From assembly GCF_057098645.1 (NCBI RefSeq), contig NZ_CM169472.1: 64,000 nucleotides of DNA, one strand, 5' to 3'. This document shows, piece after piece, positions 6,879 through 55,582 of this stretch. The notes under the pieces were generated by a model, which was not told where the DNA came from, did not search any database, and saw only the letters and a program-made list of their open reading frames with translations. The number at the start of each line of letters is the position of its first letter. The stretch's first letter is position 1. Position numbers and translations under genes: made by a program.

Positions 6879-8074
<1,196 letters not shown>

Positions 8075-8078
8075 TTAG
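8075..8078. repeat. Target-site duplication TTAG (right copy)
   Basis: See left copy at 6875-6878. Confidence 0.7.
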
Positions 8079-9006: not shown

Positions 9007-9455
9007 TAATCAAAAGGAAACAAAAATCATTGTAAACCATGCCATCTTTTTAGAGATTACCACCAGAAAATTCCTTGTTCGAAATTTAGCAATGCAAGCT
9101 ATGGAAAAACTTACAACGGAACTACACTCCTTAAGTGAGATGGACCGAAGACATGTAGTCTCTATTTTAGCCGAAATAGCTAATGGCTATGATGATTTTA
9201 GTGACATGTTGATTTATTTAGAATTTTACCCAAATCATAAGATTCTGATATCTTAAATAAGAAAATCCCGTTCGAAGTTCTGAAAAAGAAATCACAAAAT
9301 ATTAGCAGATACTTATTTCGTGACTATATCTTATCCGATGAACTTTTTTCAAAACCAGCATTTAATAATATCTTTGACGAAGATGAATGCACCTTTGCTC
9401 AATGTATCACACAGGAATAATAATATAACACTCAACAATAATATTTATTATAATT

Positions 9456-23884: not shown

Positions 23885-24408
23885 TCGCTCTGTGTAAAAA
23901 GCAGTTCAATGGATTTGGTTGGGAAAAATAACGCATTTTCGTTTTCCCCGACCAACGGGATAAAGCCCAGCGATTTATAAAACGTATGGGCTTTTTCATT
24001 CAGCGCCTCTACAAAAAGACCGTGAATACCTACTGCTAAAGAGGCTGACCAGACGACTTTCATGGCATGAGCAACCAGTGTTGCTCCCCATCCCTGCCCC
24101 TGTATTGAATGATCAATTGCCAGACGCCCAAGAGTGACGCTGGGAATATTTTTGTAGGGAATTTTTTTCTGTTTCGATTTCGAGGGCAATGCGGCTCGTT
24201 CAAAACAACTGCCGCATAATGTGTAATATCCCAGCACCTGACGTTCTGGAGTGTTGCGACAAAGGATATACGCTCGCAGAATTTTGTTGCGATGTTGACG
24301 AACGAGATGTGTCGTCAGAAAGAGATTTAACGCTTCCTCGCCGCAGTCGAATCGCTGTAGATCATAATCTGCATCATCGGTCAGAATCTCTATCGTCAGA
24401 TCATCCAT
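23881..24408 (-). CDS. GNAT-family toxin of a type II TA system (AtaT/TacT/ItaT-like aminoacyl-tRNA acetyltransferase)
   Basis: 175 aa; acetyl-CoA motif QGQGWGATLVAHAM; immediately downstream of, and 7 nt from, an RHH/DUF1778-like ORF; stop overlaps the panM stop convergently. Confidence 0.8.
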   Translation of the reverse strand: MDDLTIEILTDDADYDLQRFDCGEEALNLFLTTHLVRQHRNKILRAYILCRNTPERQVLGYYTLCGSCFERAALPSKSKQKKIPYKNIPSVTLGRLAIDHSIQGQGWGATLVAHAMKVVWSASLAVGIHGLFVEALNEKAHTFYKSLGFIPLVGENENALFFPTKSIELLFTQSD

Positions 24409-24414
24409 AAATTA

Positions 24415-24681
24415 TTACATTCCCTGAAGACGTTTTACCGCACGTTTTAGCTTTTCACCTGGTGACGGTGGATTACTCAGCGCATCCATCACCCGCGTCC
24501 AGGATTCCTCATTGAGGATCACCCGCCGATGCTGTTCAATCACTTCCGCAGCCCGCTGCGAAGCGCTGTTCAACATAAATTGGCTGACGGACTGATTAGA
24601 TATCGCTGCCGCTTCCTCAATCATACTTTTGTCATCGTCAGTTAAACGCAGATCGATACGCTGCTTTTTAACAGCAGACAT
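24415..24681 (-). CDS. DUF1778/RHH-type antitoxin (AtaR/TacA-like)
   Basis: 88 aa; typical antitoxin N-terminus (KKQRIDLRLTDDDKSMIEEAAAISNQSVSQFMLNSA); GGAGAG SD; first gene of the two-gene operon. Confidence 0.8.
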   Translation of the reverse strand: MSAVKKQRIDLRLTDDDKSMIEEAAAISNQSVSQFMLNSASQRAAEVIEQHRRVILNEESWTRVMDALSNPPSPGEKLKRAVKRLQGM

Positions 24682-24694
24682 GTGAACTCTCCTG

Positions 24695-39964: not shown

Positions 39965-40354
39965 ATGAGACATTACATGAAATGGTTTGCGGCTATTGCT
40001 GTTGTGGGTGCTTTAGCGGGTTGCGCGCGTACTGCGCCAATTGTTCAGGTTCACTCAACCGTCAGCGCTGGTCATACCCAGGAACAAGTGAAAAAAGCGA
40101 TTCTGAAAGCTGGCGTTGAACGCAAATGGATTATGTCCGAAGCCGGACAAGGCATAATTAAAGCACGTCAACAGTCACGCGATCATTCAGCGGAAATACG
40201 CATTAACTACACGGCATCCAGCTACGATATCAATTATGAAAATAGCCAGAACCTACAAGCGTCAGGCGGACAAATTCATAAAAACTACAATCGCTGGGTC
40301 CGCAATCTCGACAAAGATATTCAACTGAATTTGTCAGCGGGCGCAGATTTATAA
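39965..40354 (+). CDS. Small lipoprotein, first gene of the APE-like cluster
   Basis: 129 aa; signal peptide with lipobox (VVGALAGCA); preceded by about 380 bp of AT-rich leader. Confidence 0.55.
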   Translation: MRHYMKWFAAIAVVGALAGCARTAPIVQVHSTVSAGHTQEQVKKAILKAGVERKWIMSEAGQGIIKARQQSRDHSAEIRINYTASSYDINYENSQNLQASGGQIHKNYNRWVRNLDKDIQLNLSAGADL

Positions 40355-40413
40355 TTCTTCCTAAAGTCGGGCCGTTGCGGTCCGATAATAATTTAATTCC
40401 CTCTTAACAGGTT

Positions 40414-41481
40414 GTGCCCAACATGTACGAACAGGATTCTCTTAGCGCACTGGATGCGATTACCGAAGCTCAACGCATTGCCTTTGCCCCTATGCTTTTT
40501 CAAACAGCACTCTGCCTACGTAATGCGGGTGTACTTTCATATCTGGATCGGCAAGGCAAACATGGCGCAACGCTGGCTGATATCACCGAACATAGCCATA
40601 TCAACGAATATGCTGCCAGCGTTCTGTTAGATATGGGCTTAAGCGGGCGAATTATTACCTGTAAAGAGGGAATTTATTACCTGGCGAAAATCGGTCATTA
40701 CCTCCTGCATGACACTATGACTCGCGTGAATATGGATTTCACCCAGGATGTCTGTTACCAGGGGCTCTTCTTCCTCGCCGATTCACTCAATGAAGGAAAA
40801 CCTTCCGGGTTAAAAGTATTTGGCGACTGGTCGACGATATATCCGGCACTTTCGCAATTACCAGACGCCGCTCGTGAAAGCTGGTTTGCGTTTGATCATT
40901 ACTATTCAGATGGCGCATTTAACGCCGCACTGCCTTATGTATTCGCCAACAACCCCACAACATTGTACGATGTAGGCGGCAATACGGGTAAGTGGGCTTT
41001 GCGTTGCTGCAAATACAATGAAAACATCGCCGTGACGTTATTAGATCTGCCACAACAAATCGTACTAGCGAAAGAAAATATCGCGAATGCAGGTTTTTCT
41101 GATCGCATAGATTTCCATGCGGTGGATATGCTAAGCGATGCCCCATTACCGGGCGAGGCTGATATCTGGTGGATGAGCCAATTTTTAGACTGTTTTTCAC
41201 CCGAACAAATAATTAGCATACTCAGCAAAATCGCCAGCGTAATGAAGCCTGGCGCAAAAGTTTGCATCATGGAGTTGTTCTGGGATGCGCAGCGGTTTGA
41301 AGCAGCATCATTTAGCCTGAACGCGTCCTCACTTTATTTTACCTGCATGGCAAACGGTAACAGCCGTTTCTATAGTGCAGAGAAATTTTACGACTATCTG
41401 AATAAAGCAGGATTCCAGGTAGCAGAGCGCCACGATAATTTAGGCGTTGGGCATACACTTTTGATATGCCAAAAGAAATAA
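40414..41481 (+). CDS. Class I SAM-dependent O-methyltransferase
   Basis: 355 aa; N-terminal dimerisation-like region and Rossmann fold DVGGNTGKWA; track start is GTG 40414, an ATG lies at 40423. Confidence 0.7.
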   Translation: MPNMYEQDSLSALDAITEAQRIAFAPMLFQTALCLRNAGVLSYLDRQGKHGATLADITEHSHINEYAASVLLDMGLSGRIITCKEGIYYLAKIGHYLLHDTMTRVNMDFTQDVCYQGLFFLADSLNEGKPSGLKVFGDWSTIYPALSQLPDAARESWFAFDHYYSDGAFNAALPYVFANNPTTLYDVGGNTGKWALRCCKYNENIAVTLLDLPQQIVLAKENIANAGFSDRIDFHAVDMLSDAPLPGEADIWWMSQFLDCFSPEQIISILSKIASVMKPGAKVCIMELFWDAQRFEAASFSLNASSLYFTCMANGNSRFYSAEKFYDYLNKAGFQVAERHDNLGVGHTLLICQKK

Positions 41482-41521
41482 TCGTCACTTAATAATTTTG
41501 GTTTACCGCGGGCGCGCGTTG

Positions 41522-42244
41522 ATGAAATTTACATTAAATATTACCGACTGGCAGGCACTGGCGCCTGGACTTAGCGAAGCGCAGCAATGGCAAGCATGGT
41601 CGCGCCAGCCGTGGGCGATTGACCCTGCCGCGCCGTTGGCAAAATTAAGTGAACTGCCAATGATGACCGCCCGCCGCCTCAGTTCAGGCAGCAAACTGGC
41701 TGTTGAATGCGGTCTGGCAATGCTACGCCGCCATCAGCCAGACGCCGTTTTGTATACCAGTCGTCATGGCGAACTGGAGCGCAATTACCGCATTGTTCAT
41801 GCACTGGCAACCGAACAGGCGCTTTCTCCGACCGACTTTGCACTTTCAGTACACAACTCTTCCGTGGGTAACCTGACCATTGCGGCCAAACAGCCGATCG
41901 TTTCGTCATCGCTTTCTGCTGGTCGCGACACTTTCCAGCAAGGTTTGTGTGAAGTGCTTAGCCTGTTACAAGCGGGATACCAGCGCGTGCTGATGGTCGA
42001 TTTTGACGGTTTCCTGCCCGAGTTTTATCACCCACAACTGCCATCAGAAATGCCGACCTGGCCGTACGCCGTCGCGCTGGTGATTGAAGCTGGCGATGAC
42101 TGGCAATGTGAAACGCAGTCAGCCATTGCGGGCAATGAAACAACACTGCCGCAAAGCATGTTGTTTTTACAGCACTATTTACAAAATGTAGACACATTTT
42201 CACTGCCTGGCGAGCGCGTGCAATGGCGCTGGAGCCACAGATGA
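41522..42244 (+). CDS. Ketosynthase-like protein lacking the active-site Cys (chain-length-factor-like partner)
   Basis: ORF track 41498..42244; start moved to ATG giving MKFTLNITDWQ; thiolase-fold-like N-terminal half, no Cys-His-His triad. Confidence 0.6.
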   Translation: MKFTLNITDWQALAPGLSEAQQWQAWSRQPWAIDPAAPLAKLSELPMMTARRLSSGSKLAVECGLAMLRRHQPDAVLYTSRHGELERNYRIVHALATEQALSPTDFALSVHNSSVGNLTIAAKQPIVSSSLSAGRDTFQQGLCEVLSLLQAGYQRVLMVDFDGFLPEFYHPQLPSEMPTWPYAVALVIEAGDDWQCETQSAIAGNETTLPQSMLFLQHYLQNVDTFSLPGERVQWRWSHR

Positions 42245-43062
42245 GTAAGCTGATGTCACGTCTGGAGTGGACCTGGCGACTGGTCATGACCGGGTTATGT
42301 TTTGCCCTGTTTGGTCTCGGCGGCCTGCTGCTTTCTGTCGTGTGGTTTAACATATTGTTAGTTTTGGTGTGGGATACTTCCCGCCGCCGTCGTTTGGCGC
42401 GTCGCAGCATTGCCGCCAGTTTTCGCCTGTTTTTAACTGTCGCGAAAGGGCTTGGCGTGCTGGATTATCGTATTGATGGCGCTGAAATTTTACGTCAGGA
42501 ACGCGGTTGCCTCGTCGTAGCCAATCATCCCACGCTGATCGATTACGTGCTGCTGGCGTCAGTCATGCCAGAAACTGACTGCCTGGTGAAAAGCGCGCTG
42601 TTAAAAAATCCTTTTCTTGGCGGCGTCGTGCGGGCGGCAGATTATTTAATCAACAGCGAAGCTGAAACCCTGTTACCCCGCTGCCAACAGCGACTGGCAC
42701 AGGGTGACACTATCCTGATTTTCCCCGAAGGCACGCGAACGAAGCCCGGTGAAAAAATGACGCTGCAGCGCGGGGCGGCGAATATTGCCGTGCGCTGTGC
42801 CAGCGATTTACGCATCGTGACGATCGGCTGTAGCGAGCATCTGCTGGATAAACAAAGTAAATGGTATGACGTTCCACCTGACCGGCCGTTTTTTACGGTT
42901 GCAGTCCATGGTCGGGTTGAAATCAATAAATTTTACGATGCAACTTCACAAGAACCGGCGCTGGCAGCAAGGCAGTTAAACCGGCATCTTTTGCTTCAAT
43001 TACAACAAGGTTGTTTACCTCTCTCAGGAATAAATAATGCAAGCGCTTTATCTGGAAATTAA
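42241..43062 (+). CDS. Lysophospholipid (1-acyl-glycerol-3-phosphate-type) acyltransferase
   Basis: HX4D motif NHPTLID and FPEGTR motif; ATG overlaps previous stop (ATGA). Confidence 0.75.
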   Translation: MSKLMSRLEWTWRLVMTGLCFALFGLGGLLLSVVWFNILLVLVWDTSRRRRLARRSIAASFRLFLTVAKGLGVLDYRIDGAEILRQERGCLVVANHPTLIDYVLLASVMPETDCLVKSALLKNPFLGGVVRAADYLINSEAETLLPRCQQRLAQGDTILIFPEGTRTKPGEKMTLQRGAANIAVRCASDLRIVTIGCSEHLLDKQSKWYDVPPDRPFFTVAVHGRVEINKFYDATSQEPALAARQLNRHLLLQLQQGCLPLSGINNASALSGN

Positions 43063-43294
43063 AAACCTCATCATCAGCACCCTCAATCTGGACGAGTTGA
43101 CGCCTGATGATATCGATACCGACGCGCCGCTGTTTGGCGACGGTTTAGGGCTGGACTCTATCGATGCCCTGGAACTGGGACTGGCAGTAAAAAATGAGTA
43201 CGGCATCGTGCTCTCTGCGGAAAGCGAAGAGATGCGTCAGCACTTTTTCTCCGTCGCCACTCTGGCCTCTTTCATTGCTGCGCAACGTGCCTGA
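43037..43294 (+). CDS. Acyl carrier protein 1
   Basis: 85 aa; phosphopantetheine attachment motif GLDSIDALEL. Confidence 0.8.
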   Translation: MQALYLEIKNLIISTLNLDELTPDDIDTDAPLFGDGLGLDSIDALELGLAVKNEYGIVLSAESEEMRQHFFSVATLASFIAAQRA

Positions 43295-43305
43295 GGAAAG
43301 CCATC

Positions 43306-43557
43306 ATGACAGAACAACAAACCGTCTATCAGGAAGTCTCAGCCCTGCTGGTTAAGCTGTTTGAAATCGATCCGCAGGACATCAAACCTGAAGCGCGCCT
43401 GTACGAAGATCTGGAACTGGACAGCATCGACGCCGTTGACATGATTGTGCACCTGCAAAAGAAAACCGGTAAGAAAATCAAGCCGGAAGAGTTTAAAGCC
43501 GTGCGTACAGTCCAGGATGTCGTCGAGGCTGTAGAACGCCTGCTACAAGAAGCCTGA
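43306..43557 (+). CDS. Acyl carrier protein 2
   Basis: 83 aa; motif LELDSIDAVDM. Confidence 0.8.
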   Translation: MTEQQTVYQEVSALLVKLFEIDPQDIKPEARLYEDLELDSIDAVDMIVHLQKKTGKKIKPEEFKAVRTVQDVVEAVERLLQEA

Positions 43558-43561
43558 TCTG

Positions 43562-44143
43562 ATGTCGGGCATTCGCTCGCTACCGATGATTAAGCTGCTG
43601 ACTGGATTATTGCTGCTCGCCTGGCCGTTTGTGATTTGGTTTGGCTTAGCGCATAACGGCCTGCACTGGCTGTTACCGCTAATGGCGTTGCTGCTTTTGT
43701 TGCGTCTGCGCCAGACCCGTCGCCAGGCGGGGCCTTTACAAGCCGTCACGCAACTCGTCGCTGTCGTGGGCATCGCATTATGTGTCGCCAGCTTTATGTT
43801 GAAAACGCACCAGCTACTGCTGTTTTACCCGGTAGTGGTTAACGCGGTCATGCTGGCGGTTTTTGGCGGTTCGCTGTGGTCGGCAATGCCGATAGTTGAG
43901 CGGCTGGCGCGGTTGCAGGAGCCAGACCTCCCGGAAAAGGGCGTGCGCTATACCCGCCACGTCACGCAAATCTGGTGCGGCTTTTTCATCATTAACGGTG
44001 GAATTGCCCTCTTTACCGCGCTTTATGCCGATATGTCGTTATGGACCGCCTGGAACGGCATGATTGCTTATTTGTTGATGGGGACGTTAATGGCTGGTGA
44101 ATGGCTGCTGCGCCGTCAGGTGATGAAAAGAGATCGCGCATGA
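43562..44143 (+). CDS. Polytopic membrane protein of unknown function
   Basis: 193 aa with several hydrophobic helices; conserved position after the ACP pair. Confidence 0.55.
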   Translation: MSGIRSLPMIKLLTGLLLLAWPFVIWFGLAHNGLHWLLPLMALLLLLRLRQTRRQAGPLQAVTQLVAVVGIALCVASFMLKTHQLLLFYPVVVNAVMLAVFGGSLWSAMPIVERLARLQEPDLPEKGVRYTRHVTQIWCGFFIINGGIALFTALYADMSLWTAWNGMIAYLLMGTLMAGEWLLRRQVMKRDRA

Positions 44144-45501
44144 AGCAGACCTTACCGCTTGCACGCTGGCTGACTGCGCCACGCCCTGATGACACACCCA
44201 TTGCGTGGCTGGACGAAAGCTTCTGGACGCTGGGCGATTTGCGTCACGATGTCGCGCAACTTATCTGCCGCTTGCAGCAACAGCCGGGTGAACGCTGGGC
44301 GCTGTGCTTTGAGAACAGCTATCTGTTTATCGTTGCCCTGCTCGCCACGCTACACGCCGGAAAAACGCCGGTGCTTCCGGGGCATAACCGTGTTATCCAG
44401 CTTAACGAGCAACGTGAACTTTTTGATGGTGTGCTTAGCGACAGCGAACTTAACTGGCAAGGTTCATTGCTGTTGGTAGCAAGTTCTCCACAAATCGCGA
44501 CACAATCCTTCACCTTTTCCGCTATAGCGCCAGAGGCTTTTATCGAGCTGTTTACCTCTGGTTCCACGGGACAGCCGAAGCGGGTGATTAAACCTGTTCA
44601 TTTGCTGGACCGTGAAGCAGAACTGCTGGCTGAACGATTAGGCGCACGTCTGGCGGGTTGTCGTGTCGTCGGTTCCGTATTGCCGCAGCATTTGTACGGC
44701 CTGACTTTTCGCGTTTTCCTGCCAATGGCGCTGGGATTACCCCTACATGCCGCCATGCTCTGGTATGTCGAACAGTTTGCCGCGTTGAGTCATCAGCATC
44801 GCTATATCTTCATCAGCAGCCCGGCATTTTTGAAGCGTCTGGATACACAGATTTCCCCGCCCCCCGTTCAGGTGCTTCTCTCTGCTGGCGGTGAGCTACC
44901 GTGGCAGGACGTACAACACACCGCGAACTGGCTGCGCGTCTGGCCTGATGAAATCTACGGCAGCACGGAAACCGGCGTCATTGCCTGGCGTTACCGCGAT
45001 CAGGAGCAACGCCGCTGGCAGCCCTTCCCCGGTATGCAGTTCCGGGCCGAAGGGAATGCATTTCGTCTCTTTTCCCCGCTGATGACGGAAGATAACGGCC
45101 TGTTACTCGACGATATCTTACAGTTTAGCGAAGATGGTCAGTTCCATCTGATGGGGCGTCGCGGACGCATCGTTAAGATTGAAGAAAAACGTATTTCGTT
45201 GCAGGAAGTGGAACAACGTCTGCTGGCACTGGACGGTATTCGCGAGGCGGCGGCAGTTCCTGTTACGCGCGGCGGGCGTCAGAGCATAGGCGTTTTGCTG
45301 GTGCTGGATGACGAAGCTCGTCTGCAATGGCAGAACGGCGGCGGGCATAGCCAGGAAATGACCTGGCGGCGATTACTACGCCCGACGCTGGAGCCTGTTG
45401 CCATTCCGCGTTACTGGCGCGTTATTGATGAAATGCCAGTAAACAGTATGAACAAGCGTGTCTATGCGCAATTACAGGAGTTATTTCATGAAGCCCCATG
45501 A
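44140..45501 (+). CDS. AMP-dependent synthetase/ligase (acyl/aryl-adenylating enzyme)
   Basis: AMP-binding motif TSGSTGQPK; ATG 44140 overlaps previous stop (ATGA). Confidence 0.8.
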   Translation: MKQTLPLARWLTAPRPDDTPIAWLDESFWTLGDLRHDVAQLICRLQQQPGERWALCFENSYLFIVALLATLHAGKTPVLPGHNRVIQLNEQRELFDGVLSDSELNWQGSLLLVASSPQIATQSFTFSAIAPEAFIELFTSGSTGQPKRVIKPVHLLDREAELLAERLGARLAGCRVVGSVLPQHLYGLTFRVFLPMALGLPLHAAMLWYVEQFAALSHQHRYIFISSPAFLKRLDTQISPPPVQVLLSAGGELPWQDVQHTANWLRVWPDEIYGSTETGVIAWRYRDQEQRRWQPFPGMQFRAEGNAFRLFSPLMTEDNGLLLDDILQFSEDGQFHLMGRRGRIVKIEEKRISLQEVEQRLLALDGIREAAAVPVTRGGRQSIGVLLVLDDEARLQWQNGGGHSQEMTWRRLLRPTLEPVAIPRYWRVIDEMPVNSMNKRVYAQLQELFHEAP

Positions 45502-45841
45502 AATCGAGCGCCATCAGGCACAAGCGAATCACCTTGAGATTGTTTTGCATCTCAGGGCAGATCTGTTCTGGTTTCGCGGCCATTTTGCCGTGCAACCATT
45601 ACTCCCTGGCGTGGCACAAATCGACTGGGCAATGAGTTACGCGCTTGCCCTGCTCGCGCCTGGCTGGCGTTTTCACTCCATTCAGAACATAAAATTTCAG
45701 TCTCCGTTGCTGCCGGAAAACCGCGTCACGCTCACGCTTAACTGGCAGGAAGATCGCCAGATTCTGAGCTTTAGCTATCAGCGTCACGACGGTGACGCCC
45801 GCCACACCGCCAGTAGCGGGAAGATCCGCCTATGTCGGTAA
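45488..45841 (+). CDS. Hotdog-fold 3-hydroxyacyl-ACP dehydratase-like protein
   Basis: 117 aa from ATG 45488 (MKPHEIERHQ...); overlaps the ligase stop. Confidence 0.5.
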   Translation: MKPHEIERHQAQANHLEIVLHLRADLFWFRGHFAVQPLLPGVAQIDWAMSYALALLAPGWRFHSIQNIKFQSPLLPENRVTLTLNWQEDRQILSFSYQRHDGDARHTASSGKIRLCR

Positions 45842-47508
45842 ACTTTTCGCCCTGCGTGTTGATCCCCTGCTACAACCACGGCGCGATGATGCCGGGCGTG
45901 CTGGCGCGTCTTAAGCCATTTAATCTGCCCTGTATTGTGGTGGACGACGGCAGCGATGCCGCCACGCAACAGCAACTGGACAGTCTGCTTGCCGAGCAGC
46001 CTGGCGTGACTTTAATTCGCCTGGCAGAAAACGCAGGCAAAGGCGCGGCGGTGATGTACGGCTTACAGGCGGCGAAAGACGCGGGCTTCAGCCATGCGGT
46101 GCAGGTGGATGCTGACGGTCAACATGCGATTGAAGATATCCCCAAACTGCTGGCAGTCGCTGAACAACACCCTGCGGCGCTGATCTCCGGCCAGCCAATT
46201 TACGATGACTCCATCCCCCGCTCACGGCTTTACGGGCGCTGGGTCACCCACGTCTGGGTATGGATCGAAACGCTCTCCCTGCAACTGAAAGACAGCATGT
46301 GCGGTTTTCGCGTTTATCCGGTTGCGCCGACGCTGCAACTGGCAAAACACGCCACCATCGGCAAGCGGATGGATTTCGACACTGAAGTGATGGTGCGCCT
46401 CTACTGGCAGGGAAACACCAGCTATTTCGTGCCGACCCGCGTCACCTATCCACTGGACGGGCTTTCACATTTTGATGCCCTGAAAGATAACGTCCGCATC
46501 TCGCTCATGCACACGCGTCTGTTTTTCGGCATGTTGCCGCGTATTCCTTCACTGCTGATGCGCCGCTCTTCCAGCCACTGGGCGCGGCAGAGTGAAGTGA
46601 AAGGATTATGGGGAATGCGCCTGATGCTGCTGGTCTGGCGTCTGCTGGGAAGAACGGCGTTTAGCGCGCTGCTTTACCCGGTGGTGGGCGTCTACTGGCT
46701 CACTGCTTCTCGTGCGCGCAAAGCGTCGCAAGACTGGCTCGCCCGTGTACGACAGCATCAACCACAGGCGGCAAAACTCAACAGCTATCAGCACTTTCTA
46801 CGTTTCGGTAATGCCATGCTCGACAAAATCGCCAGCTGGCGCGGCGAGCTACAACTGGGGCGTGATGTGCTGTTTGCGCCAGGCGCAGAAGCGGCGCTTG
46901 ACGTCCGCGATCCGCGCGGCAAATTGCTGCTGGCCTCGCATCTTGGCGATGTGGAAGTGTGCCGGGCGCTGGCAAAAATTCAGGGCTACAAAACCATTAA
47001 CGCGCTGGTGTTTAGCGAAAACGCCCAACGCTTTAAACAGATAATGCAGGAGATGGCCCCGCAGGCTGGTATCAACCTGATGCCGGTAACAGATATCGGC
47101 CCGGAAACCGCCATCCTGCTAAAAGATAAGCTGGATAACGGCGAATGGGTGGCGATTGTCGGCGACCGCATCGCCGTCAACCCGCAACGCGGCGGCGACT
47201 GGCGCGTCTGCTGGAGTCCGTTTATGGGCCAGCCTGCGCCTTTCCCACAGGGGCCATTTATTCTCGCGTCTATTTTGCGCTGCCCGGTGAATCTGATTTT
47301 CGCCCTACGCCAGCACGGCAAGCTGCATATTCACTGCGAAACCTTTGCCGACCCGCTGCTGTTGCCGCGTGGCGAACGCCAACAGGCGCTGCAAAACGCT
47401 ATCGACCACTACGCCGCGCGTCTGGAACATTACGCGCTCCAGTCGCCCCTCGACTGGTTTAATTTTTTCGATTTCTGGCAACTGCCGGAAATTCAGGACA
47501 AGGAGTAA
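45832..47508 (+). CDS. Fusion protein: family-2 glycosyltransferase N-domain plus lipid-A-type (LpxL/HtrB-like) acyltransferase C-domain
   Basis: 558 aa; N-terminus CVLIPCYNHG...VVDDGSDA (GT2 signature); C-terminal half resembles lauroyl/myristoyl acyltransferases. Confidence 0.65.
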   Translation: MSVNFSPCVLIPCYNHGAMMPGVLARLKPFNLPCIVVDDGSDAATQQQLDSLLAEQPGVTLIRLAENAGKGAAVMYGLQAAKDAGFSHAVQVDADGQHAIEDIPKLLAVAEQHPAALISGQPIYDDSIPRSRLYGRWVTHVWVWIETLSLQLKDSMCGFRVYPVAPTLQLAKHATIGKRMDFDTEVMVRLYWQGNTSYFVPTRVTYPLDGLSHFDALKDNVRISLMHTRLFFGMLPRIPSLLMRRSSSHWARQSEVKGLWGMRLMLLVWRLLGRTAFSALLYPVVGVYWLTASRARKASQDWLARVRQHQPQAAKLNSYQHFLRFGNAMLDKIASWRGELQLGRDVLFAPGAEAALDVRDPRGKLLLASHLGDVEVCRALAKIQGYKTINALVFSENAQRFKQIMQEMAPQAGINLMPVTDIGPETAILLKDKLDNGEWVAIVGDRIAVNPQRGGDWRVCWSPFMGQPAPFPQGPFILASILRCPVNLIFALRQHGKLHIHCETFADPLLLPRGERQQALQNAIDHYAARLEHYALQSPLDWFNFFDFWQLPEIQDKE

Positions 47509-47511
47509 AGG

Positions 47512-47934
47512 GTGCTTAACGATCCCCGATTTACCGCTGAAGTCGAGCTGACCATTCCCTTTCACGACGTCGATATGATGGGCGTGGCCTGGCACGGTAA
47601 CTATTTTCGCTACTTTGAAGTGGCCCGCGAGGCGCTGCTCAACCAGTTCAATTACGGCTATCGGCAGATGAAAGAGTCCGGTTATTTGTGGCCAGTGGTC
47701 GATGCGCGGGTGAAATATCGCCACGCCCTCACCTTTGAGCAACGCATCCGCGTGCGTGCGCATATCGAAGAGTTCGAAAACCGTCTGCGGATTGGCTATC
47801 AGATTTTCGATGCCGAAACGGGCAAACGCGCCACCACCGGATACACCATTCAGGTCGCGGTCGACGAGCAAAGTCGCGAACTGTGCTTTGTCAGCCCCGA
47901 TATTCTGTTTGAACGCATGGGAGTCAAATCATGA
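47512..47934 (+). CDS. Hotdog-fold acyl-CoA/ACP thioesterase (4HBT/YbgC-like)
   Basis: 140 aa; motif HDVDMMGVAWHGNYFRYFE. Confidence 0.7.
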   Translation: MLNDPRFTAEVELTIPFHDVDMMGVAWHGNYFRYFEVAREALLNQFNYGYRQMKESGYLWPVVDARVKYRHALTFEQRIRVRAHIEEFENRLRIGYQIFDAETGKRATTGYTIQVAVDEQSRELCFVSPDILFERMGVKS

Positions 47935-48536
47935 AATTTTTACCGCTGCTGGCGCTGCTGATTAGCCCGTTTGTGAGCGCCCTGAGCCTGGACGATCTTC
48001 AGCAACGCTTTACCGAACAGCCGGTGATCCGCGCCCATTTCGATCAAACCCGGACGATTAAAGATCTGCCGCAGCCGCTGCGATCTCAGGGCCAGATGTT
48101 GATCACCCGCGACCAGGGGCTGTTGTGGGATCAAACCTCACCGTTCCCCATGCAACTATTACTGGACGATAAACGCATGGCGCAGGTGATCAACGGTCAG
48201 CCGCCGCAAATCATCACGGCAGAAAATAACCCGCAGATGTTCCAGTTTAACCACCTGCTGCGCGCGCTGTTCCAGGCCGATCGCAAAGTGCTGGAACAAA
48301 ACTTCCGCGTCGAATTTGCCGACAAAGGCGAAGGCCGCTGGACGCTGCGCCTGACGCCGACCACCACGCCACTGGATAAAATTTTCAACACCATCGATCT
48401 CGCCGGGCAAACCTATCTGGAGAGCATTCAGCTTAATGATAAACAGGGCGATCGCACCGATATTGCTCTTACCCAACATCAACTGACACCAGCGCAACTG
48501 ACCGATGACGAACGCCAACGTTTTGCCGCCCAGTAA
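47931..48536 (+). CDS. LolA-like outer-membrane lipoprotein carrier protein
   Basis: 201 aa; signal peptide MKFLPLLALLISPFVSA; size and pattern of LolA/LolB-fold proteins. Confidence 0.55.
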   Translation: MKFLPLLALLISPFVSALSLDDLQQRFTEQPVIRAHFDQTRTIKDLPQPLRSQGQMLITRDQGLLWDQTSPFPMQLLLDDKRMAQVINGQPPQIITAENNPQMFQFNHLLRALFQADRKVLEQNFRVEFADKGEGRWTLRLTPTTTPLDKIFNTIDLAGQTYLESIQLNDKQGDRTDIALTQHQLTPAQLTDDERQRFAAQ

Positions 48537-50823
48537 ACGCCCCGCGCTGTTATGGGGGCTAGTCTGCCTGGTCATGGCGGCGGCGTTGCTGATCCTGCTG
48601 CCGCAATCACGGCTGAACAGTAGCGTGCTGGCTATGTTACCCAAACAGGCGATGGGCGATATTCCCCCAGCGCTGAATGACGGCTTTATGCAGCGTCTGG
48701 ACCGCCAACTGGTGTGGCTGGTCAGCCCCGGTAAAGAGGCTAATCCCAGGGTCGCTCAGGAGTGGCTGACGCAGCTGCAAAAATCCGCTGCGCTTGGCGA
48801 CATTAAAGGGCCAATGGATGCCGCCAGCCAGCAGGCGTGGGGAGCGTTTTTCTGGCAGCACCGCAACGGCCTGATTGACCACGACACCCGCGCCCGCCTG
48901 CAAAACGGCGGCGAAGCGCAGGCGCAGTGGATCCTCTCCCAGCTTTATTCTGCATTCTCCGGGGTAAGCGGCAAGGAGCTGCAAAACGATCCGCTGATGT
49001 TAATGCGCGGCTCGCAGCTGGCGATGGCAAAAAATGGCCAGCGTTTGCGGCTGATGGACGGCTGGCTGGTGACGCAGGATCCCCAGGGCAACTACTGGTA
49101 TCTGCTGCACGGCGAACTGGCGGGATCGTCGTTTGATATGCAGCAAACCCACCAGCTCATCACGACCCTGAATACGCTGGAAAAGGATCTGAAAACGCGT
49201 TACCCACAGGCGCAGTTGCTCTCGCGCGGCACGGTATTTTACAGCGATTACGCCAGTCAACAGGCGAAGCAGGATATCTCAACCCTGGGCGTGGCAACGC
49301 TGCTGGGGGTGATATTGCTGATTGTGGCGGTGTTCCGCTCTTTGCGTCCGTTGCTGCTTTGCATGATTTCCATCGGCATCGGCGCGCTGGCGGGAACGGT
49401 CGCCACATTGTTGATTTTCGGTGAATTACACCTGATGACGCTGGTGATGAGCATGAGCGTTATCGGCATTTCCGCTGACTACACACTCTATTATCTCACC
49501 GAGCGGATGGTGCACGGCAACGACGTTTCGCCGTGGCAAAGCCTGGCGAAAGTACGCAATGCCTTGCTACTGGCGCTGCTCACCACCGTGGCGGCATATC
49601 TGATTATGATGCTCGCCCCCTTCCCCGGTATCCGCCAGATGGCGATTTTTGCCGCCATCGGGTTGAGCGCCTCTTGTCTGACCGTCCTGTTCTGGCATCC
49701 GTGGCTGTGCCGTGGCCTGCCGGTGCGCCCGGTTCCGGCGATGGCGCTGATGCTACGCTGGCTGGCAGCGTGGCGGCGCAATAAAAAACTGTCGCTGGGT
49801 CTGCCCGTCGCGCTGGCGCTGTTTTCGCTGGCGGGGATGTCAATGCTGCGCGTCGATGACGATATCTCGCAGTTACAGGCGCTGCCGCAGCATATTCTGG
49901 CGCAGGAGAAAGCCATTACCGCCCTGACCGGACAAAGCGTCGATCAAAAATGGTTTGTAGTTTACGGCGACTTCCCACAGCAAACATTGCGGCGGCTGGA
50001 GACATTTACCACCTCACTGGAGAAAGCGAAAAAAGACGGCCTTATCAGCAACTACCGCACCATTCCGCTGAACTCCCTGGCGCGGCAGGAGGAAGATTTA
50101 GACCTGCTGAAAACGGCGGCCCCGACAGTAACAAAAGCGCTGCAAAATGCCGGGCTGACGGCAGTGAACCCGGATCTCAACGCCATGCCAGTGAACGTTG
50201 ATGAATGGCTGGCAAGCCCCGCCAGTGAAGGCTGGCGTCTGCTGTGGCTGACGCTGGAAAACGGCGAAAGCGGCGTACTGGTGCCGGTTGAAGGGGTTAA
50301 AAGTAGCGCGTTGATGCAGGAAATCGCCACATATTACCCTTGCGGCATTGCCTGGGTTGATCGCAAAAGCACCTTTGATGAATTGTTCGCACTTTACCGC
50401 TACGTCTTAACCGGCTTGTTGCTGGTGGCGCTGGCAGTGATTGCCTGCGGCGCAGTGGCCCGTCTCGGCTGGCGCAAAGGGCTTATCAGCCTGGTGCCTT
50501 CGGTGCTTTCGCTGGGCTGTGGTCTGGCGGTGCTGGCGATGAGCGGGCAGGCGGTGAATCTCTTTTCGCTGCTGGCGCTGGTGCTGGTGCTTGGCATCGG
50601 TATCAACTACACGCTGTTTTTCAGTAATCCGCGCGGTACACCGTTAACTTCGCTACTGGCGATCGCGCTGGCAATGCTCACCACCTTGCTGACGCTGGGA
50701 ATGTTGGTATTCAGCGCCACCCAGGCCATCAGCAGTTTTGGCATTGTGCTGGTGAGCGGTATTTTCACCGCCTTCCTGCTTTCGCCGCTGGCTATGCCCG
50801 ATAAAAAGAGAACAAAAAAATGA
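48505..50823 (+). CDS. MMPL/RND-superfamily exporter
   Basis: 772 aa; two blocks of TM helices separated by soluble loops; exact start uncertain (overlaps previous gene by 32 nt). Confidence 0.7.
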   Translation: MTNANVLPPSKRPALLWGLVCLVMAAALLILLPQSRLNSSVLAMLPKQAMGDIPPALNDGFMQRLDRQLVWLVSPGKEANPRVAQEWLTQLQKSAALGDIKGPMDAASQQAWGAFFWQHRNGLIDHDTRARLQNGGEAQAQWILSQLYSAFSGVSGKELQNDPLMLMRGSQLAMAKNGQRLRLMDGWLVTQDPQGNYWYLLHGELAGSSFDMQQTHQLITTLNTLEKDLKTRYPQAQLLSRGTVFYSDYASQQAKQDISTLGVATLLGVILLIVAVFRSLRPLLLCMISIGIGALAGTVATLLIFGELHLMTLVMSMSVIGISADYTLYYLTERMVHGNDVSPWQSLAKVRNALLLALLTTVAAYLIMMLAPFPGIRQMAIFAAIGLSASCLTVLFWHPWLCRGLPVRPVPAMALMLRWLAAWRRNKKLSLGLPVALALFSLAGMSMLRVDDDISQLQALPQHILAQEKAITALTGQSVDQKWFVVYGDFPQQTLRRLETFTTSLEKAKKDGLISNYRTIPLNSLARQEEDLDLLKTAAPTVTKALQNAGLTAVNPDLNAMPVNVDEWLASPASEGWRLLWLTLENGESGVLVPVEGVKSSALMQEIATYYPCGIAWVDRKSTFDELFALYRYVLTGLLLVALAVIACGAVARLGWRKGLISLVPSVLSLGCGLAVLAMSGQAVNLFSLLALVLVLGIGINYTLFFSNPRGTPLTSLLAIALAMLTTLLTLGMLVFSATQAISSFGIVLVSGIFTAFLLSPLAMPDKKRTKK

Positions 50824-51404
50824 TCAAACCCACATTCTGGCGAGCGTTTGCCCTGACCGCTACGCTTATCCTCACCGGCTGTAGCCACTCGCAACCAGAA
50901 CAGGAAGGCCGCCCGCAAGCGTGGCTGCAACCTGGCTCGCGCATCACGCTGCCTGCGCCGGGGATTTCACCCGCCGTCAATTCCCAGCAACTGTTGACCG
51001 GCAGCTTCAACGGCAACACCCAGTCGCTGCTAGTGATGCTTAACGCCGACGACCAGAAAATCACCCTTGCCGGACTGTCGTCGGTCGGCATTCGCCTGTT
51101 TCTGGTGACCTACGATGCGCAAGGGCTACGCGCCGAGCAATCCATCGTCGTCCCACAGTTACCGCCCGCAAGTCAGGTACTGGCTGACGTGATGCTCAGC
51201 CACTGGCCGATTAGCGCCTGGCAACCGCAACTTCCCGCAGGATGGACACTTCGCGACAACGGTGACAAACGCGAGCTGCGTAACGCCAGCGGCAAACTGG
51301 TCACGGAAATAACCTATCTGAATCGCAAGGGCAAACGCGTGCCAATCAGCATTGAGCAGCATGTCTTTAAATACCACATCACCATTCAATACTTAGGTGA
51401 CTGA
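50820..51404 (+). CDS. Lipoprotein of unknown function (DUF3261-like)
   Basis: 194 aa; lipobox LTGCSHS. Confidence 0.55.
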   Translation: MIKPTFWRAFALTATLILTGCSHSQPEQEGRPQAWLQPGSRITLPAPGISPAVNSQQLLTGSFNGNTQSLLVMLNADDQKITLAGLSSVGIRLFLVTYDAQGLRAEQSIVVPQLPPASQVLADVMLSHWPISAWQPQLPAGWTLRDNGDKRELRNASGKLVTEITYLNRKGKRVPISIEQHVFKYHITIQYLGD

Positions 51405-51405
51405 T

Positions 51406-52575
51406 ATGATTTATATTTCCGCCGTCGGCATGATCAACGCCCTGGGAAATAACCTTGACGATATCGCAGCCAACCTGACTCGCGGTGTCGCCCCCGGAAT
51501 GCGCCCACGCGCAGGCTGGTTGCAGGGGCATCCGCAGGCGGTCCTGGCTGGCGTGGATGGCGAGCTTCCGCTTATCCCGGAAAAATTCGCTGCGCATCGC
51601 TCGCGCAACAATCAGATCCTGCTGGCGGCGCTGGCGCAGCTCCAGCCGCAGGTTGATGACGCTATCGCGAAATATGGTCGCCAGCGCATCGCGATTGTAC
51701 TTGGCACCAGCACCTCCGGCCTGCATGAAGGCGACACGCACGTTAACCTGCGCACCCACGGGCAGCCGAGCACCACATGGCACTACGCGCAACAGGAACT
51801 CGGCGATCCGTCGCGTTTTCTCAGCCACTGGCTGGCGCTCGACGGCCCGGCCTATACCCTTTCAACCGCCTGCTCTTCCAGCGCCAGAGCGATAATCAGC
51901 GGGCGCAGGCTTATCGAAGCGGGGCTGGTCGATGCCGCCATTGTGGGTGGCGCAGACACCCTGAGCCGGATGCCGATTAACGGTTTTCACAGCCTCGAAT
52001 CGCTGTCGCCAACCTTATGTCAGCCGTTTGGTCGTGACCGCGCAGGTATCACCATTGGTGAAGGGGCGGGGCTAATGCTGCTGACCCGGGAACCGCAGCC
52101 CATCGCGTTGCTGGGCGTTGGTGAATCGAGCGACGCTTACCATATTTCAGCCCCGCATCCGCAGGGCGAAGGAGCGATCCGCGCTATTAATCAGGCGCTG
52201 ACCGATGCGCAGCTTACGCCAGATGACGTCGGCTATATCAACCTGCACGGCACCGCCACACAACTCAACGATCAGATTGAATCAATGGTGGTTAACGCCC
52301 TGTTTGGCGAACGCGTACCGTGCAGCTCCACCAAACATTTGACCGGACACACGCTGGGCGCAGCGGGCATTACCGAGGCGGCAATTAGTATGTTGATTTT
52401 ACAGCGTGATTTACCGCTGCCCGCTCAGGACTTCAGCCTGTCGCCGCGCGATCCCACGCTGCCACCGTGTGGCATTATCGAAAAACCGCAGCCGCTGGCA
52501 CGTCCGGTGATCCTGTCCAATTCCTTCGCCTTTGGCGGCAATAACGCCAGCATTCTGCTCGGGAGGGTTTCGTGA
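51406..52575 (+). CDS. Beta-ketoacyl-ACP synthase (active KS)
   Basis: ORF track 51397..52575; start moved to ATG giving MIYISAVGMINALGN; active-site Cys in TACSSS, His motifs HGTATQ and GHTLGAAG. Confidence 0.8.
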   Translation: MIYISAVGMINALGNNLDDIAANLTRGVAPGMRPRAGWLQGHPQAVLAGVDGELPLIPEKFAAHRSRNNQILLAALAQLQPQVDDAIAKYGRQRIAIVLGTSTSGLHEGDTHVNLRTHGQPSTTWHYAQQELGDPSRFLSHWLALDGPAYTLSTACSSSARAIISGRRLIEAGLVDAAIVGGADTLSRMPINGFHSLESLSPTLCQPFGRDRAGITIGEGAGLMLLTREPQPIALLGVGESSDAYHISAPHPQGEGAIRAINQALTDAQLTPDDVGYINLHGTATQLNDQIESMVVNALFGERVPCSSTKHLTGHTLGAAGITEAAISMLILQRDLPLPAQDFSLSPRDPTLPPCGIIEKPQPLARPVILSNSFAFGGNNASILLGRVS

Positions 52576-53036
52576 GCCACTATTTATCCCCCGGCGCTTA
52601 TCTGCCCCACGACGCGCCCATGTTACTGCTGGAAGACGTGGTGAGCGTCAGCGATGACAGCGCGGTGTGCCGCGTAACGGTCTCGCCCAGCGGCGTACTG
52701 GCACCGTTCCTCGACCCGGACGGCAATCTACCCGGCTGGTTTGCCCTTGAACTGATGGCGCAAACCGTCGGTGTCTGGTCTGGCTGGCATCGCCGCCAGC
52801 AGGGCAAAAACAGTATTGAGTTAGGGATGATACTGGGCGCGCGTGAATTGCTTTGCACCACTGGCATTCTGCCCGCAGGCCAGACGCTGACCATTACCGT
52901 CAAACTGCTGATGCAAGACGATCGCTTCGGCAGTTTTGAGTGCAGCATCAACGACGGCGAGGCGACGGGCCGCATTAACACCTTCCAGCCGACCGCGGAA
53001 GAACTTACCACCCTGTTTCAACAAGGAGCGTCCTGA
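52572..53036 (+). CDS. Hotdog-fold dehydratase
   Basis: 154 aa; GTG start overlapping the KS stop. Confidence 0.55.
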   Translation: MSHYLSPGAYLPHDAPMLLLEDVVSVSDDSAVCRVTVSPSGVLAPFLDPDGNLPGWFALELMAQTVGVWSGWHRRQQGKNSIELGMILGARELLCTTGILPAGQTLTITVKLLMQDDRFGSFECSINDGEATGRINTFQPTAEELTTLFQQGAS

Positions 53037-53767
53037 TGAGTCGTTCAGTTCTGGTTACTGGTGCCAGCAAAGGCATTGGTCGCGCCATCGCCTGCCAACT
53101 GGCGGCAGACGGCTTTAACATTGGCGTTCACTATCACCGTGACGCCACAGGCGCTCAGGAAACGCTGAATGCCATTGTCGCCAACGGGGGTAACGGGCGT
53201 TTGCTCAGTTTCGACGTCGCAAACCGCGAACAGTGTCGGGAAGTGCTGGAGCATGAGATCGCGCAACACGGTGCCTGGTACGGCGTGGTCAGTAACGCCG
53301 GGATCGCCCGCGATGCCGCTTTTCCGGCTTTAAGCGATGACGACTGGGATGCGGTGATCCACACCAACCTCGACAGTTTCTACAACGTCATTCAGCCGTG
53401 CATTATGCCGATGATCGGCGCACGCCAGGGTGGGCGCATCATCACGCTATCCTCGGTTTCCGGCGTAATGGGCAATCGCGGCCAGGTGAATTACAGCGCT
53501 GCCAAAGCCGGAATTATCGGCGCAACAAAAGCGCTGGCTATCGAACTCGCGAAGCGCAAAATCACCGTCAACTGCATCGCGCCGGGGCTTATTGATACCG
53601 GGATGATCGAAATGGAAGAGAGCGCTCTGAAAGAGGCAATGTCGATGATCCCCATGAAACGTATGGGCCAGGCGGAAGAAGTTGCCGGGCTTGCCAGTTA
53701 TTTAATGTCTGATATTGCGGGTTACGTCACCCGCCAGGTTATTTCCATCAACGGAGGGATGTTATGA
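53036..53767 (+). CDS. 3-oxoacyl-ACP reductase (FabG-like SDR)
   Basis: TGASKGIGRAIA Rossmann motif and YSAAKAG catalytic motif. Confidence 0.85.
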   Translation: MSRSVLVTGASKGIGRAIACQLAADGFNIGVHYHRDATGAQETLNAIVANGGNGRLLSFDVANREQCREVLEHEIAQHGAWYGVVSNAGIARDAAFPALSDDDWDAVIHTNLDSFYNVIQPCIMPMIGARQGGRIITLSSVSGVMGNRGQVNYSAAKAGIIGATKALAIELAKRKITVNCIAPGLIDTGMIEMEESALKEAMSMIPMKRMGQAEEVAGLASYLMSDIAGYVTRQVISINGGML

Positions 53768-54993
53768 CACGTCGCGTAGTGATTACAGGAATGGGCGGCG
53801 TGACTGCCTTTGGTGAAAACTGGCAGGACGTTTCTGCACGCTTACTGGCGTATGAAAATGCGGTGCGCAAAATGCCGGAGTGGCAGGTCTACGATGGCCT
53901 GCACACCCTGCTTGGCGCGCCTGTTGATGATTTCACGCTACCGGAGCACTACACCCGCAAGCGTATCCGTGCGATGGGCCGCGTGTCGCAAATGTCGACC
54001 CGTGCCAGCGAGCTGGCGTTAGAGCAGGCAGGGTTGATTGGCGATCCGATATTAACCAGCGGCGAAACGGGCATTGCGTACGGTTCATCGACCGGCAGTA
54101 CCGGCCCGGTAAGCGAGTTCGCCACCATGCTGACGGAAAAGCACACCAATAACATCACTGGCACCACCTATGTGCAGATGATGCCGCACACCACCGCCGT
54201 TAATACTGGCCTCTTTTTCGGCCTGCGCGGGCGGGTGATCCCAACCTCCAGCGCCTGTACTTCCGGCAGCCAGGCAATCGGTTATGCGTGGGAAGCCATT
54301 CGCCACGGTTATCAAACGGTGATGGTTGCTGGTGGTGCCGAAGAGTTATGTCCTTCAGAAGCAGCGGTATTTGATACGCTTTTCGCCACCAGCCAGCACA
54401 ATGATGCGCCGAAAACCACACCTTCACCGTTCGATGAAAACCGCGACGGGCTGGTGATTGGTGAAGGCGCAGGTACGCTCATTCTCGAAGAACTGGAGCA
54501 CGCCAAAGCGCGCGGCGCGACCATTTACGGTGAAATCGTCGGCTTTGCGACGAACTGCGACGCGGCACATATTACCCAGCCGCAGCGCGAAACCATGCAG
54601 TATTGTATGGAGCAATCGCTGAAAATCGCCGGGTTAAGCGCACAAGATATCGGCTATATTTCAGCGCATGGTACGGCGACCGATCGCGGTGATATGGCAG
54701 AAAGTCTGGCGACAGCAACCATTTACGGTGATAATGTGCCGCTCTCCTCGCTGAAAAGTTATTTTGGTCATACGCTTGGTGCCTGTGGCGCGCTCGAAGC
54801 CTGGATGAGTCTGCAAATGATGCGCGAAGGTTGGTTTGCGCCTACGCTAAACCTGAATAAACCAGACCCGAATTGTGGCGCGCTGGATTACATCATGCAT
54901 GAAGCCCGCAAGGTTGATTGTGAGTTTTTGCAGAGTAACAACTTTGCCTTTGGCGGCATTAATACATCCATCATCATTAAACGTTGGCCCTGA
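53764..54993 (+). CDS. Beta-ketoacyl-ACP synthase II-like (FabF-like)
   Basis: 409 aa; Cys in SSACTSGS, His motifs HGTATD and GHTLGACGA. Confidence 0.85.
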   Translation: MTRRVVITGMGGVTAFGENWQDVSARLLAYENAVRKMPEWQVYDGLHTLLGAPVDDFTLPEHYTRKRIRAMGRVSQMSTRASELALEQAGLIGDPILTSGETGIAYGSSTGSTGPVSEFATMLTEKHTNNITGTTYVQMMPHTTAVNTGLFFGLRGRVIPTSSACTSGSQAIGYAWEAIRHGYQTVMVAGGAEELCPSEAAVFDTLFATSQHNDAPKTTPSPFDENRDGLVIGEGAGTLILEELEHAKARGATIYGEIVGFATNCDAAHITQPQRETMQYCMEQSLKIAGLSAQDIGYISAHGTATDRGDMAESLATATIYGDNVPLSSLKSYFGHTLGACGALEAWMSLQMMREGWFAPTLNLNKPDPNCGALDYIMHEARKVDCEFLQSNNFAFGGINTSIIIKRWP

Positions 54994-54994
54994 T

Positions 54995-55582
54995 ATGTAT
55001 CGGATAGTTCTGGGGAAAGTTTCGACCTTAAGCGCAGCTCCACTGCCACCGGGTTTACGCGAGCAAGCACCGCAAGGTCCACGACGCGAACGCTGGCTGG
55101 CGGGGCGTGCATTGCTTTCGCACACGCTTTCCCCGCTACCGGAGATCATCTATGGCGAACAAGGCAAACCTGCATTTGCGCCGGAAACGCCGCTATGGTT
55201 CAACTTAAGCCATAGCGGTGACGATATCGCTCTGCTGTTGAGTGATGAAGGCGAAGTCGGCTGCGATATCGAAGTGATTCGCCCGCGCGCCAACTGGCGC
55301 TGGCTGGCGAACGCCGTATTCAGCCTCGGGGAACACGCTGAGATGGACGCCGTGCATCCTGATCAGCAACTGGAAATGTTCTGGCGCATCTGGACGCGCA
55401 AAGAAGCCATCGTTAAACAGCGTGGTGGCAGCGCCTGGCAAATCGTCAGCGTAGACAGCACCTATCACTCCTCGCTGTCAGTCAGCCATTGTCAGCTAGA
55501 AAATTTAAGCCTGGCGATCTGCACCCCCACCCCCTTTACGCTCACCGCCGACAGTGTGCAATGGATCGATTCAGTTAACTGA
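54995..55582 (+). CDS. acpT: 4'-phosphopantetheinyl transferase (holo-ACP synthase AcpT)
   Basis: ORF track 54875..55582; start moved to MYRIVLGKVSTLSAAPLPPGL; PPTase motifs (FNLSHSGD, WTRKEAIVK). Confidence 0.85.
   Translation: MYRIVLGKVSTLSAAPLPPGLREQAPQGPRRERWLAGRALLSHTLSPLPEIIYGEQGKPAFAPETPLWFNLSHSGDDIALLLSDEGEVGCDIEVIRPRANWRWLANAVFSLGEHAEMDAVHPDQQLEMFWRIWTRKEAIVKQRGGSAWQIVSVDSTYHSSLSVSHCQLENLSLAICTPTPFTLTADSVQWIDSVN

Follow-up and report, generated by a model that had tools for sequence, protein, structure and literature searches.

Folds, sorting signals and gene linkage of ApeL, ApeM and ApeN are consistent with a Lol-like route to the outer membrane for an aryl polyene lipid in Escherichia coli

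How does a lipid that carries a polyketide pigment travel from the inner membrane, where it would be assembled, to the outer membrane? The question arises from a stretch of 64,000 nucleotides (contig NZ_CM169472.1 of NCBI RefSeq assembly GCF_057098645.1; hereafter the window) that contains an aryl polyene (APE) cluster, whose product gives pathogenic E. coli protection from oxidative stress and influences its biofilm formation. An earlier reading of the bare sequence (the original prediction) had noted a LolA-like carrier, an MMPL/RND exporter and a lipoprotein lying side by side within a biosynthetic cluster and had suggested that they move its lipidic product by a Lol-like handoff. The segment in question, 47931-51404, has the apeL start and the apeN stop as its exact bounds and comprises three co-directional, overlapping open reading frames (ORFs), whose contiguity inside the cluster is borne out, with exact coordinates, by Pfam matches and a lipobox. 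Judged by sequence comparison, apeL-apeM-apeN is the previously described export part of the E. coli APE cluster. We read it as the outer-membrane localization module for a glycophospholipid (APE-lipid) that would be relayed from the RND protein to the LolA-like and on to the LolB-like protein, and put the probability of this reading at about 0.6. Folds, sorting signals and linkage support the suggested handoff in silico, in line with a published hypothesis.

The three ORFs are real genes rather than chance reading frames, since RefSeq calls the identical coding sequences on a 100% identical O145 chromosome (as LolA family protein, MMPL family transporter and DUF3261 domain-containing protein) and the same gene order recurs in Enterobacterales loci and in Francisella. 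E. coli O145 chromosomes match the stretch at 100% identity; among 5426 complete E. coli genomes, 825 contain a match, in every case on the chromosome. Comparison with the APE_Ec cluster of strain CFT073, which we located in NC_004431 (L089, 1143727-1158748), identifies c1192, c1191 and c1190 (Johnston et al, 2021, PMC8253772) as the orthologs of ApeL, ApeM and ApeN, with the same order and overlaps and full-length protein identities of 97.5, 96.6 and 95.4%, respectively. An identical Lol-like handoff model has been put forward for ApeL, ApeM and ApeN of Xenorhabdus doucetiae (Grammbitter et al, 2020, preprint), and both publications already propose the relay together with prior lipid anchoring by ApeD and ApeJ (Johnston et al, 2021; Grammbitter et al, 2020). 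Our interpretation is therefore already known and not new; what the present analysis adds is independent support from structure and sorting signals. Full-text literature searching found no later paper testing the transport steps.

ApeL scores 42.2 bits against Pfam LolA (cut-off 23.6) and 41.1 bits against LolA_3. The original prediction had proposed to compare the carrier with LolA at the level of structure, and ApeL indeed fits the LolA fold, an unclosed β-barrel with internal helices. Its N-terminus (MKFLPLLALLISPFVSA followed by LS) is a typical type I (Sec) signal peptide without a lipobox, as judged by eye, and comparable signal peptides are found in all 22 representative enterobacterial and metagenomic homologs inspected as well as in Francisella. 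ApeL is therefore predicted to be periplasmic, a refinement of this work; the sequence gives no support to the description of ApeL as "cytoplasmic" (Grammbitter et al, 2020, preprint). With 59.1 bits against the LolA equivalog TIGR00547 (cut-off 112) and 54 bits against LolA2_flexi (cut-off 125), ApeL remains below both NCBIfam equivalog thresholds and is best classified as a LolA-family paralog, not the housekeeping LolA. Genomic context suggests the RND protein ApeM, not LolCDE, as its loader. The homolog set consisted of ORFs from fetched loci, while word-indexed protein searches returned near-identical enterobacterial sequences only. By sequence and locus, the protein deposited as "LolA family protein" in PDB entry 8t5j (with 9coz and 9cwl) is the ApeL ortholog of the Francisella philomiragia APE cluster (L088, 10001-10585), so that a crystal structure of an ApeL ortholog is already on record. 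A literature search on the three entries found no paper tying them to aryl polyenes.

The presumptive receiving end of the relay is ApeN, which matches Pfam DUF3261 with 133.7 bits and begins with MIKPTFWRAFALTATLILTG-C21-S, thus presenting a lipobox (LTG-C21) with Ser at position +2. In a deep alignment built from a representative-library search, the lipobox Cys is the sole invariant column across 106 diverse DUF3261 proteins (24-61% identity). A strict lipobox is found in 88 of 109 full-length DUF3261 representatives, and Asp at +2 in none of these 88. By the established rule for lipoprotein sorting in enterobacteria, ApeN is thus predicted to be targeted to the outer membrane. The AlphaFold model of ApeN is confident (pLDDT 93) and adopts a LolB fold: LolB is its best structural match by two methods, with Vibrio cholerae LolB as the top Foldseek hit and the sole match at E ≤ 0.001. 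ApeN has no match among LolB sequence families (Pfam reports DUF3261 only, NCBIfam nothing) and, on the basis of its model, is LolB-like by fold rather than a member of the LolB family by sequence. Housekeeping LolA and LolB are thereby rejected as identities for ApeL and ApeN, the equivalog thresholds not being reached. The protruding loop of E. coli LolB exposes the hydrophobic Leu68; for a corresponding loop in ApeN, the conserved GLSxxGxRLF segment (residues 85-94) is no more than a candidate.

ApeM reaches 33.1 bits against Pfam MMPL (cut-off 20.5), over residues 252-395 only. A simple Kyte-Doolittle hydropathy scan, used here for ApeM and ApeG in place of a topology predictor, outlines 12 transmembrane segments (TMs) with two periplasmic domains, the first (~33-255, ~220 residues) between TM1 and TM2-6 and the second (~448-625, ~180 residues) between TM7 and TM8-12. 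All NCBIfam matches are sub-threshold (HpnN 47.8 of 751.85 bits, HAE3 48.9 of 351.9, actII 31.1 of 874.7, BstA 30.6 of 1400), and ApeM thus falls outside the HpnN, HAE3, actII-MMPL and BstA equivalogs. Its best solved relatives are the HpnN hopanoid transporters (HAE-3 RND; PDB 5khn and 6wu0; E 1e-6 and 6e-5), although the best match has an E-value of only 1e-6 and extends over one TM bundle. In the HMMER alignment, D325 in TM4 is placed on D344 of HpnN, T726/T727 in TM11 on T818/T819, and L734 on L826. In HpnN, D344 is reportedly essential, and T818/T819 and L826 are said to be functionally important. The D325-Y326 pair is invariant in all 81 ApeM homologs that span TM4, and by alignment D325 is the conserved acidic TM4 residue associated with proton coupling. 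In TM10, position 701, preceding Tyr702, is Asn in 82 homologs, including all of those from Enterobacterales, and Asp in three distant ones (Francisella, L082, and L083). Having Asn rather than Asp at this position, the ApeM lineage studied here seems to have neutralized the second MmpL-type Asp-Tyr pair.

The linkage of the three genes is conserved over a large phylogenetic distance. Among 80 Enterobacterales loci located through ApeN, 73 have (B)CDEFGHIJKLMNOPQR complete and in this order; the remaining seven comprise four that end early with the sequence, two without one or two genes, and one with a displaced apeR. In this set, apeA and apeB counts are artefactually low, as these genes lie outside the 10-kb flank, and a 15-sequence alignment search likewise returned Enterobacterales only. 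Beyond this order, K-L-M-N-O-P-Q is found on a GC-rich metagenomic contig (L083; ApeN 46% identical), and on three short contigs the C-terminus of ApeM lies directly 5′ of a DUF3261 gene (25-32% identical). Wide synteny is thinly sampled here, as distant DUF3261 representatives lie mostly on contigs of 1-3 kb. In F. philomiragia (L088), the order is C-D-E-F-G-H-I-GT2-acyltransferase-K-L-M-N, with O-P-Q-R inverted on the opposite strand; rearrangement elsewhere in the cluster has thus left the export block intact. K, L, M and N keep their order all the way from Enterobacterales to Francisella.

This conservation bears on the idea that apeL-apeM-apeN serves efflux or envelope maintenance in general and, unrelated to the pigment, just happens to lie beside the polyketide synthase (PKS) genes. 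RND transporters are often multidrug pumps, and the Pfam MMPL match covers one half of ApeM. Against this stand the translational coupling of L-M-N within the operon, the company of APE core genes that the module keeps in Enterobacterales, Francisella and the GC-rich metagenomic contig, and the altered product profiles of Xenorhabdus single deletions of each of apeB-R. Moreover, neither the cluster nor its flanks contain a gene for a membrane-fusion (adaptor) protein or an outer-membrane factor, which rules out a tripartite pump of the AcrAB-TolC type. We consider an unrelated efflux function highly improbable.

What the module would carry is suggested by the lipid-anchoring enzymes of the cluster, which the original prediction had named as a GT2/acyltransferase fusion and an LPLAT that could attach the polyketide chain to a lipid anchor beforehand. 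The fusion is verified. ApeD matches Pfam Acyltransferase (PF01553) with 70.8 bits, contains an H96-x4-D101 motif and is annotated accordingly in RefSeq. ApeJ has a Pfam GT2 domain at residues 8-131, while its C-terminal 318 residues give no direct Pfam or PDB match. A stand-alone Francisella protein, however, shares 34% identity with this C-terminal half (E 1e-61) and passes Pfam Lip_A_acyltrans (26.6 bits, cut-off 22.3), and H370-x4-E375 of ApeJ aligns with the H-x4-[DE] motif. By transitive homology, we assign the C-terminal half of ApeJ to the LpxL-type acyltransferases, a second refinement of this work. Francisella (L088, 7902-9571) has two separate genes, one for the GT2 and one for the LpxL-type acyltransferase, where E. 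coli has the single fusion gene apeJ.

Published chemistry from Xenorhabdus backs the anchoring claim. The Xenorhabdus APE-lipid is a glycerol-phosphate-GalNAc lipid in which the aryl polyene is esterified on the sugar and which further bears two acyl chains, one conjugated (C26:5) and one saturated, and ΔapeJ cells accumulate a diacyl-glycerophosphate intermediate (Grammbitter et al, 2020, preprint). According to this structure, ApeJ puts the aryl polyene onto the sugar and ApeD adds the second, conjugated fatty acyl chain. The same chemistry bears on an alternative raised by Johnston et al, in which ApeL and ApeN would have as their cargo one of the cluster's own lipoproteins (ApeA or ApeN), perhaps with the aryl polyene in its lipid anchor. 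By precedent, LolA and LolB carry lipoproteins, and ApeA and ApeN are two encoded by the cluster; yet the isolated Xenorhabdus product is a free glycophospholipid and not a lipopeptide, the Francisella cluster has no lipoprotein gene ahead of apeC, and ApeA is just 64% identical to its CFT073 counterpart, compared to 95-98% for ApeL, ApeM and ApeN. In addition, CFT073 ΔapeA retains wild-type pigmentation (Johnston et al, 2021, PMC8253772). A lipoprotein cargo is accordingly a quite improbable alternative to APE-lipid.

In the relay that we favor, the type II PKS would make the aryl polyene on an acyl carrier protein (ACP), and ApeD together with ApeJ would assemble the three-chain APE-lipid at the inner membrane. 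ApeM, driven by the proton-motive force, would then extract APE-lipid from this membrane via its two periplasmic domains and hand it to soluble periplasmic ApeL, which would shield the acyl chains and deliver the lipid to outer-membrane-anchored ApeN for insertion there. The sorting signals, i.e., 12 TMs in ApeM, a type I signal in ApeL and a lipobox in ApeN, fit such a handoff across the envelope. The reading is built on gene identity, CFT073 orthology, folds, sorting signals, the TM4 Asp-Tyr pair and conserved linkage from this analysis, and on findings of others, namely the Xenorhabdus APE-lipid structure, the ΔapeJ intermediate and the localization of the related xanthomonadin to the outer membrane; what ApeL and ApeN carry, in which direction and order it is passed on and what powers the transfer we infer. 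Like the LolCDE-LolA-LolB system, the module combines a soluble periplasmic carrier of LolA fold with an outer-membrane-anchored lipoprotein of LolB fold, and the three acyl chains of APE-lipid would resemble those of a mature lipoprotein anchor. In contrast, the inner-membrane part is an RND/MMPL protein instead of an ABC transporter, with ApeM filling the place that LolCDE takes in lipoprotein sorting, and what the module presumably carries is a glycolipid rather than a protein. Whether ApeM-ApeL-ApeN is a self-contained, proton-driven Lol-like route for a glycophospholipid, in which an RND pump replaces LolCDE, and hence a separate class of lipid transport between the two membranes of Gram-negative bacteria, seems to us evenly poised. 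If the relay is true, lipid traffic would be a second use of the Lol carrier fold, and the module, being small, non-essential and easy to score by its yellow color, would serve as a model of periplasmic lipid transfer.

A shorter route is conceivable in which ApeM alone carries APE-lipid across the periplasm, as has been proposed for HpnN and MmpL3, with ApeL and ApeN acting as chaperones or assembly factors that stabilize the pump or coupling biosynthesis to export. The HpnN transporters are the nearest solved relatives of ApeM, and, like ApeM as proposed, HpnN moves a biosynthetic lipid toward the outer membrane; HpnN is not known to have a LolA- or LolB-like partner. Transport mutants lose pigment rather than mislocalize it, a phenotype that fits coupling or feedback better than simple downstream transport. 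LolA and LolB folds equipped with soluble-periplasmic and outer-membrane signals are, however, what a shuttle requires, and the persistence of L-M-N linkage over such distances likewise speaks against a pump that works unaided. We therefore regard transport by ApeM alone as unlikely, though the more credible of the alternatives weighed here.

Several points nevertheless weigh against the relay. To our knowledge, HpnN and MmpL3 are thought to act without a LolA-like partner, and a carrier step is consequently not a necessary corollary of an RND lipid pump. The similarity between ApeN and LolB is moderate, with TM-scores of 0.41-0.48 and 6-14% identity in structural alignments, and a distant DUF3261 contig (L084) is without an adjacent apeM, showing that apeM-apeN adjacency is not universal. 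CFT073 ΔapeM loses almost all pigment and does not mislocalize it, clean CFT073 ΔapeL and ΔapeN mutants were not obtained, and polar effects are possible (PMC8253772). Further, a Lysobacter mutant in the LolA-like ORF10 is still pigmented, a readout of pigment production and not of localization.

Related systems place the relay in a wider frame. Mycobacterial MmpL7/LppX (phthiocerol dimycocerosate, PDIM) and MmpL3 operate in another envelope type, LppX being itself a lipoprotein, and no soluble shuttle is known there. Xanthomonadin, arcuflavin and flexirubin clusters share conserved genes for LolA, an exporter, a glycosyltransferase and an acyltransferase. In Flavobacterium johnsoniae, the LolA- and LolB-like pair LolA2/LolB2 is dedicated to the locus of flexirubin, an aryl-polyene-type pigment; the pair is dispensable for general lipoprotein functions and always present in flexirubin loci, and its role in pigmentation is presumed (PMC11885536). 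The APPE family of RND proteins (TCDB 2.A.6.8) comes from the xanthomonadin locus of Xanthomonas oryzae, where an RND protein, likewise encoded in an APE pigment cluster, is associated with localization of the pigment to the outer membrane. This locus is said to have founded the family. The passage of a citing paper that mentions the X. oryzae homolog family describes it as "shown to be a pigment exporter". From genomic context and a statement in Grammbitter et al (2020), we infer that ApeM belongs to the APPE family.

The export subsystem probably extends beyond 47931-51404, since ApeG is always proposed as part of it. ApeG is a small polytopic protein without any Pfam, NCBIfam or PDB match, conserved in 76-77 of the 80 Enterobacterales loci and in Francisella; its identity to the CFT073 protein is 81%. 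RND pumps run on the proton-motive force. The literature on APE clusters proposes ApeG as an export accessory that powers transport by hydrolysis of ATP or pyrophosphate. We reject an ATP-driven role, considering that ApeG consists almost entirely of hydrophobic segments, has a longest loop of ~33 residues and no domain, and would serve a pump that is driven by protons; more probably, ApeG assists ApeM as a small accessory in the membrane.

Table 1. Positions of the APE cluster and of the genes discussed, numbered along the window.
Feature	Product or content	Position	Strand	Basis
apeA-apeR	Whole APE cluster, 18 genes, type II PKS	39977..54993	+	
apeA	Small lipoprotein, first gene of the cluster	39977..40354	+	Lipobox LAG-C
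apeD	LPLAT (lysophospholipid/glycerol-3-phosphate acyltransferase)	42241..43062	+	PF01553, RefSeq
apeG	Small polytopic membrane protein, 193 aa, ~5-6 hydrophobic segments	43562..44143	+	Hydropathy
apeJ	GT2 and putative LpxL-type acyltransferase, fused	45832..47508	+	Pfam GT2; Francisella homolog
apeK	4HBT-type thioesterase	47512..47934	+	Pfam 4HBT_2
apeL	LolA-fold carrier, predicted periplasmic, 201 aa	47931..48536	+	Pfam LolA, LolA_3; signal peptide
apeM	Inner-membrane RND/MMPL transporter, 772 aa	48505..50823	+	Pfam MMPL, hydropathy, HpnN alignment
apeN	DUF3261 lipoprotein, LolB-like fold in the model, 194 aa	50820..51404	+	Pfam, lipobox, structure model

The export genes are embedded among APE core genes (ketosynthase, chain length factor (CLF), two ACPs, ApeI, ApeP, ketoreductase and aryl-acid AMP ligase; Table 1). 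As identified from Pfam, NCBIfam and RefSeq, their neighbors encode ApeI-like and ApeP dehydratases, an AMP-binding enzyme, ketosynthases, a ketoreductase, the two ACPs, a 4HBT thioesterase, the GT2 protein (558 aa) and the LPLAT; the ApeI-like, ketoacyl-synt and AMP-binding matches come from Pfam, and RefSeq names an ApeP family dehydratase, a CLF and FabG2. Overlaps amount to 4 bp between apeK and apeL, 32 bp between apeL and apeM, and 4 bp between apeM and apeN, and each junction from apeC through acpT is at most 11 bp long or overlapping. A scan for promoter- and terminator-like sites across the cluster found no excess over shuffled sequence, which together with the tight junctions is consistent with one long operon. 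The 4′-phosphopantetheinyl transferase gene acpT (54995-55582) begins 1 bp past the apeR stop, like the last gene of an operon. AcpT of K-12 is reportedly an "orphan", its cognate carrier proteins being encoded on this O157-type island.

Relative to CFT073, the cluster is a mosaic at the DNA level and more diverged in its 5′ third, with 96.2% identity over 45387-54993 and 90.2% over 40229-44390; blastn against CFT073 gave no match across ~44390-45387, the 5′ part of apeH. The insertion sites differ as well: here, the cluster is located between yhhT and acpT/nikA, whereas its site in CFT073 is an island beside pgaA/dgcT that is rich in integrase genes and insertion sequences. The CFT073 island stops at apeR and is without acpT.

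Two loci of the survey deserve separate mention. A contig assigned to "Chryseobacterium sp. 18061" (L029, CACSKA010000004.1) carries an ape cluster of enterobacterial type with ApeN 80% identical to the E. coli protein, and the assembly is probably mislabeled or contaminated. On L084, the gene upstream of DUF3261 (3-209) is a non-ApeM gene whose product has the C-terminus ...SILAGYAWDRSNPYVAEPKRRLAVLEEMCAA. Elsewhere in the window, a low-GC patch within 7342-9748 (37% GC in 8001-10000) comprises a frameshifted pseudogene of tssD, the gene for the type VI secretion tube protein, followed by yrhA, yrhD and a frameshifted yrhB. At 23890-24690, an AtaT/AtaR acetyltransferase toxin-antitoxin pair sits between panM and livJ.

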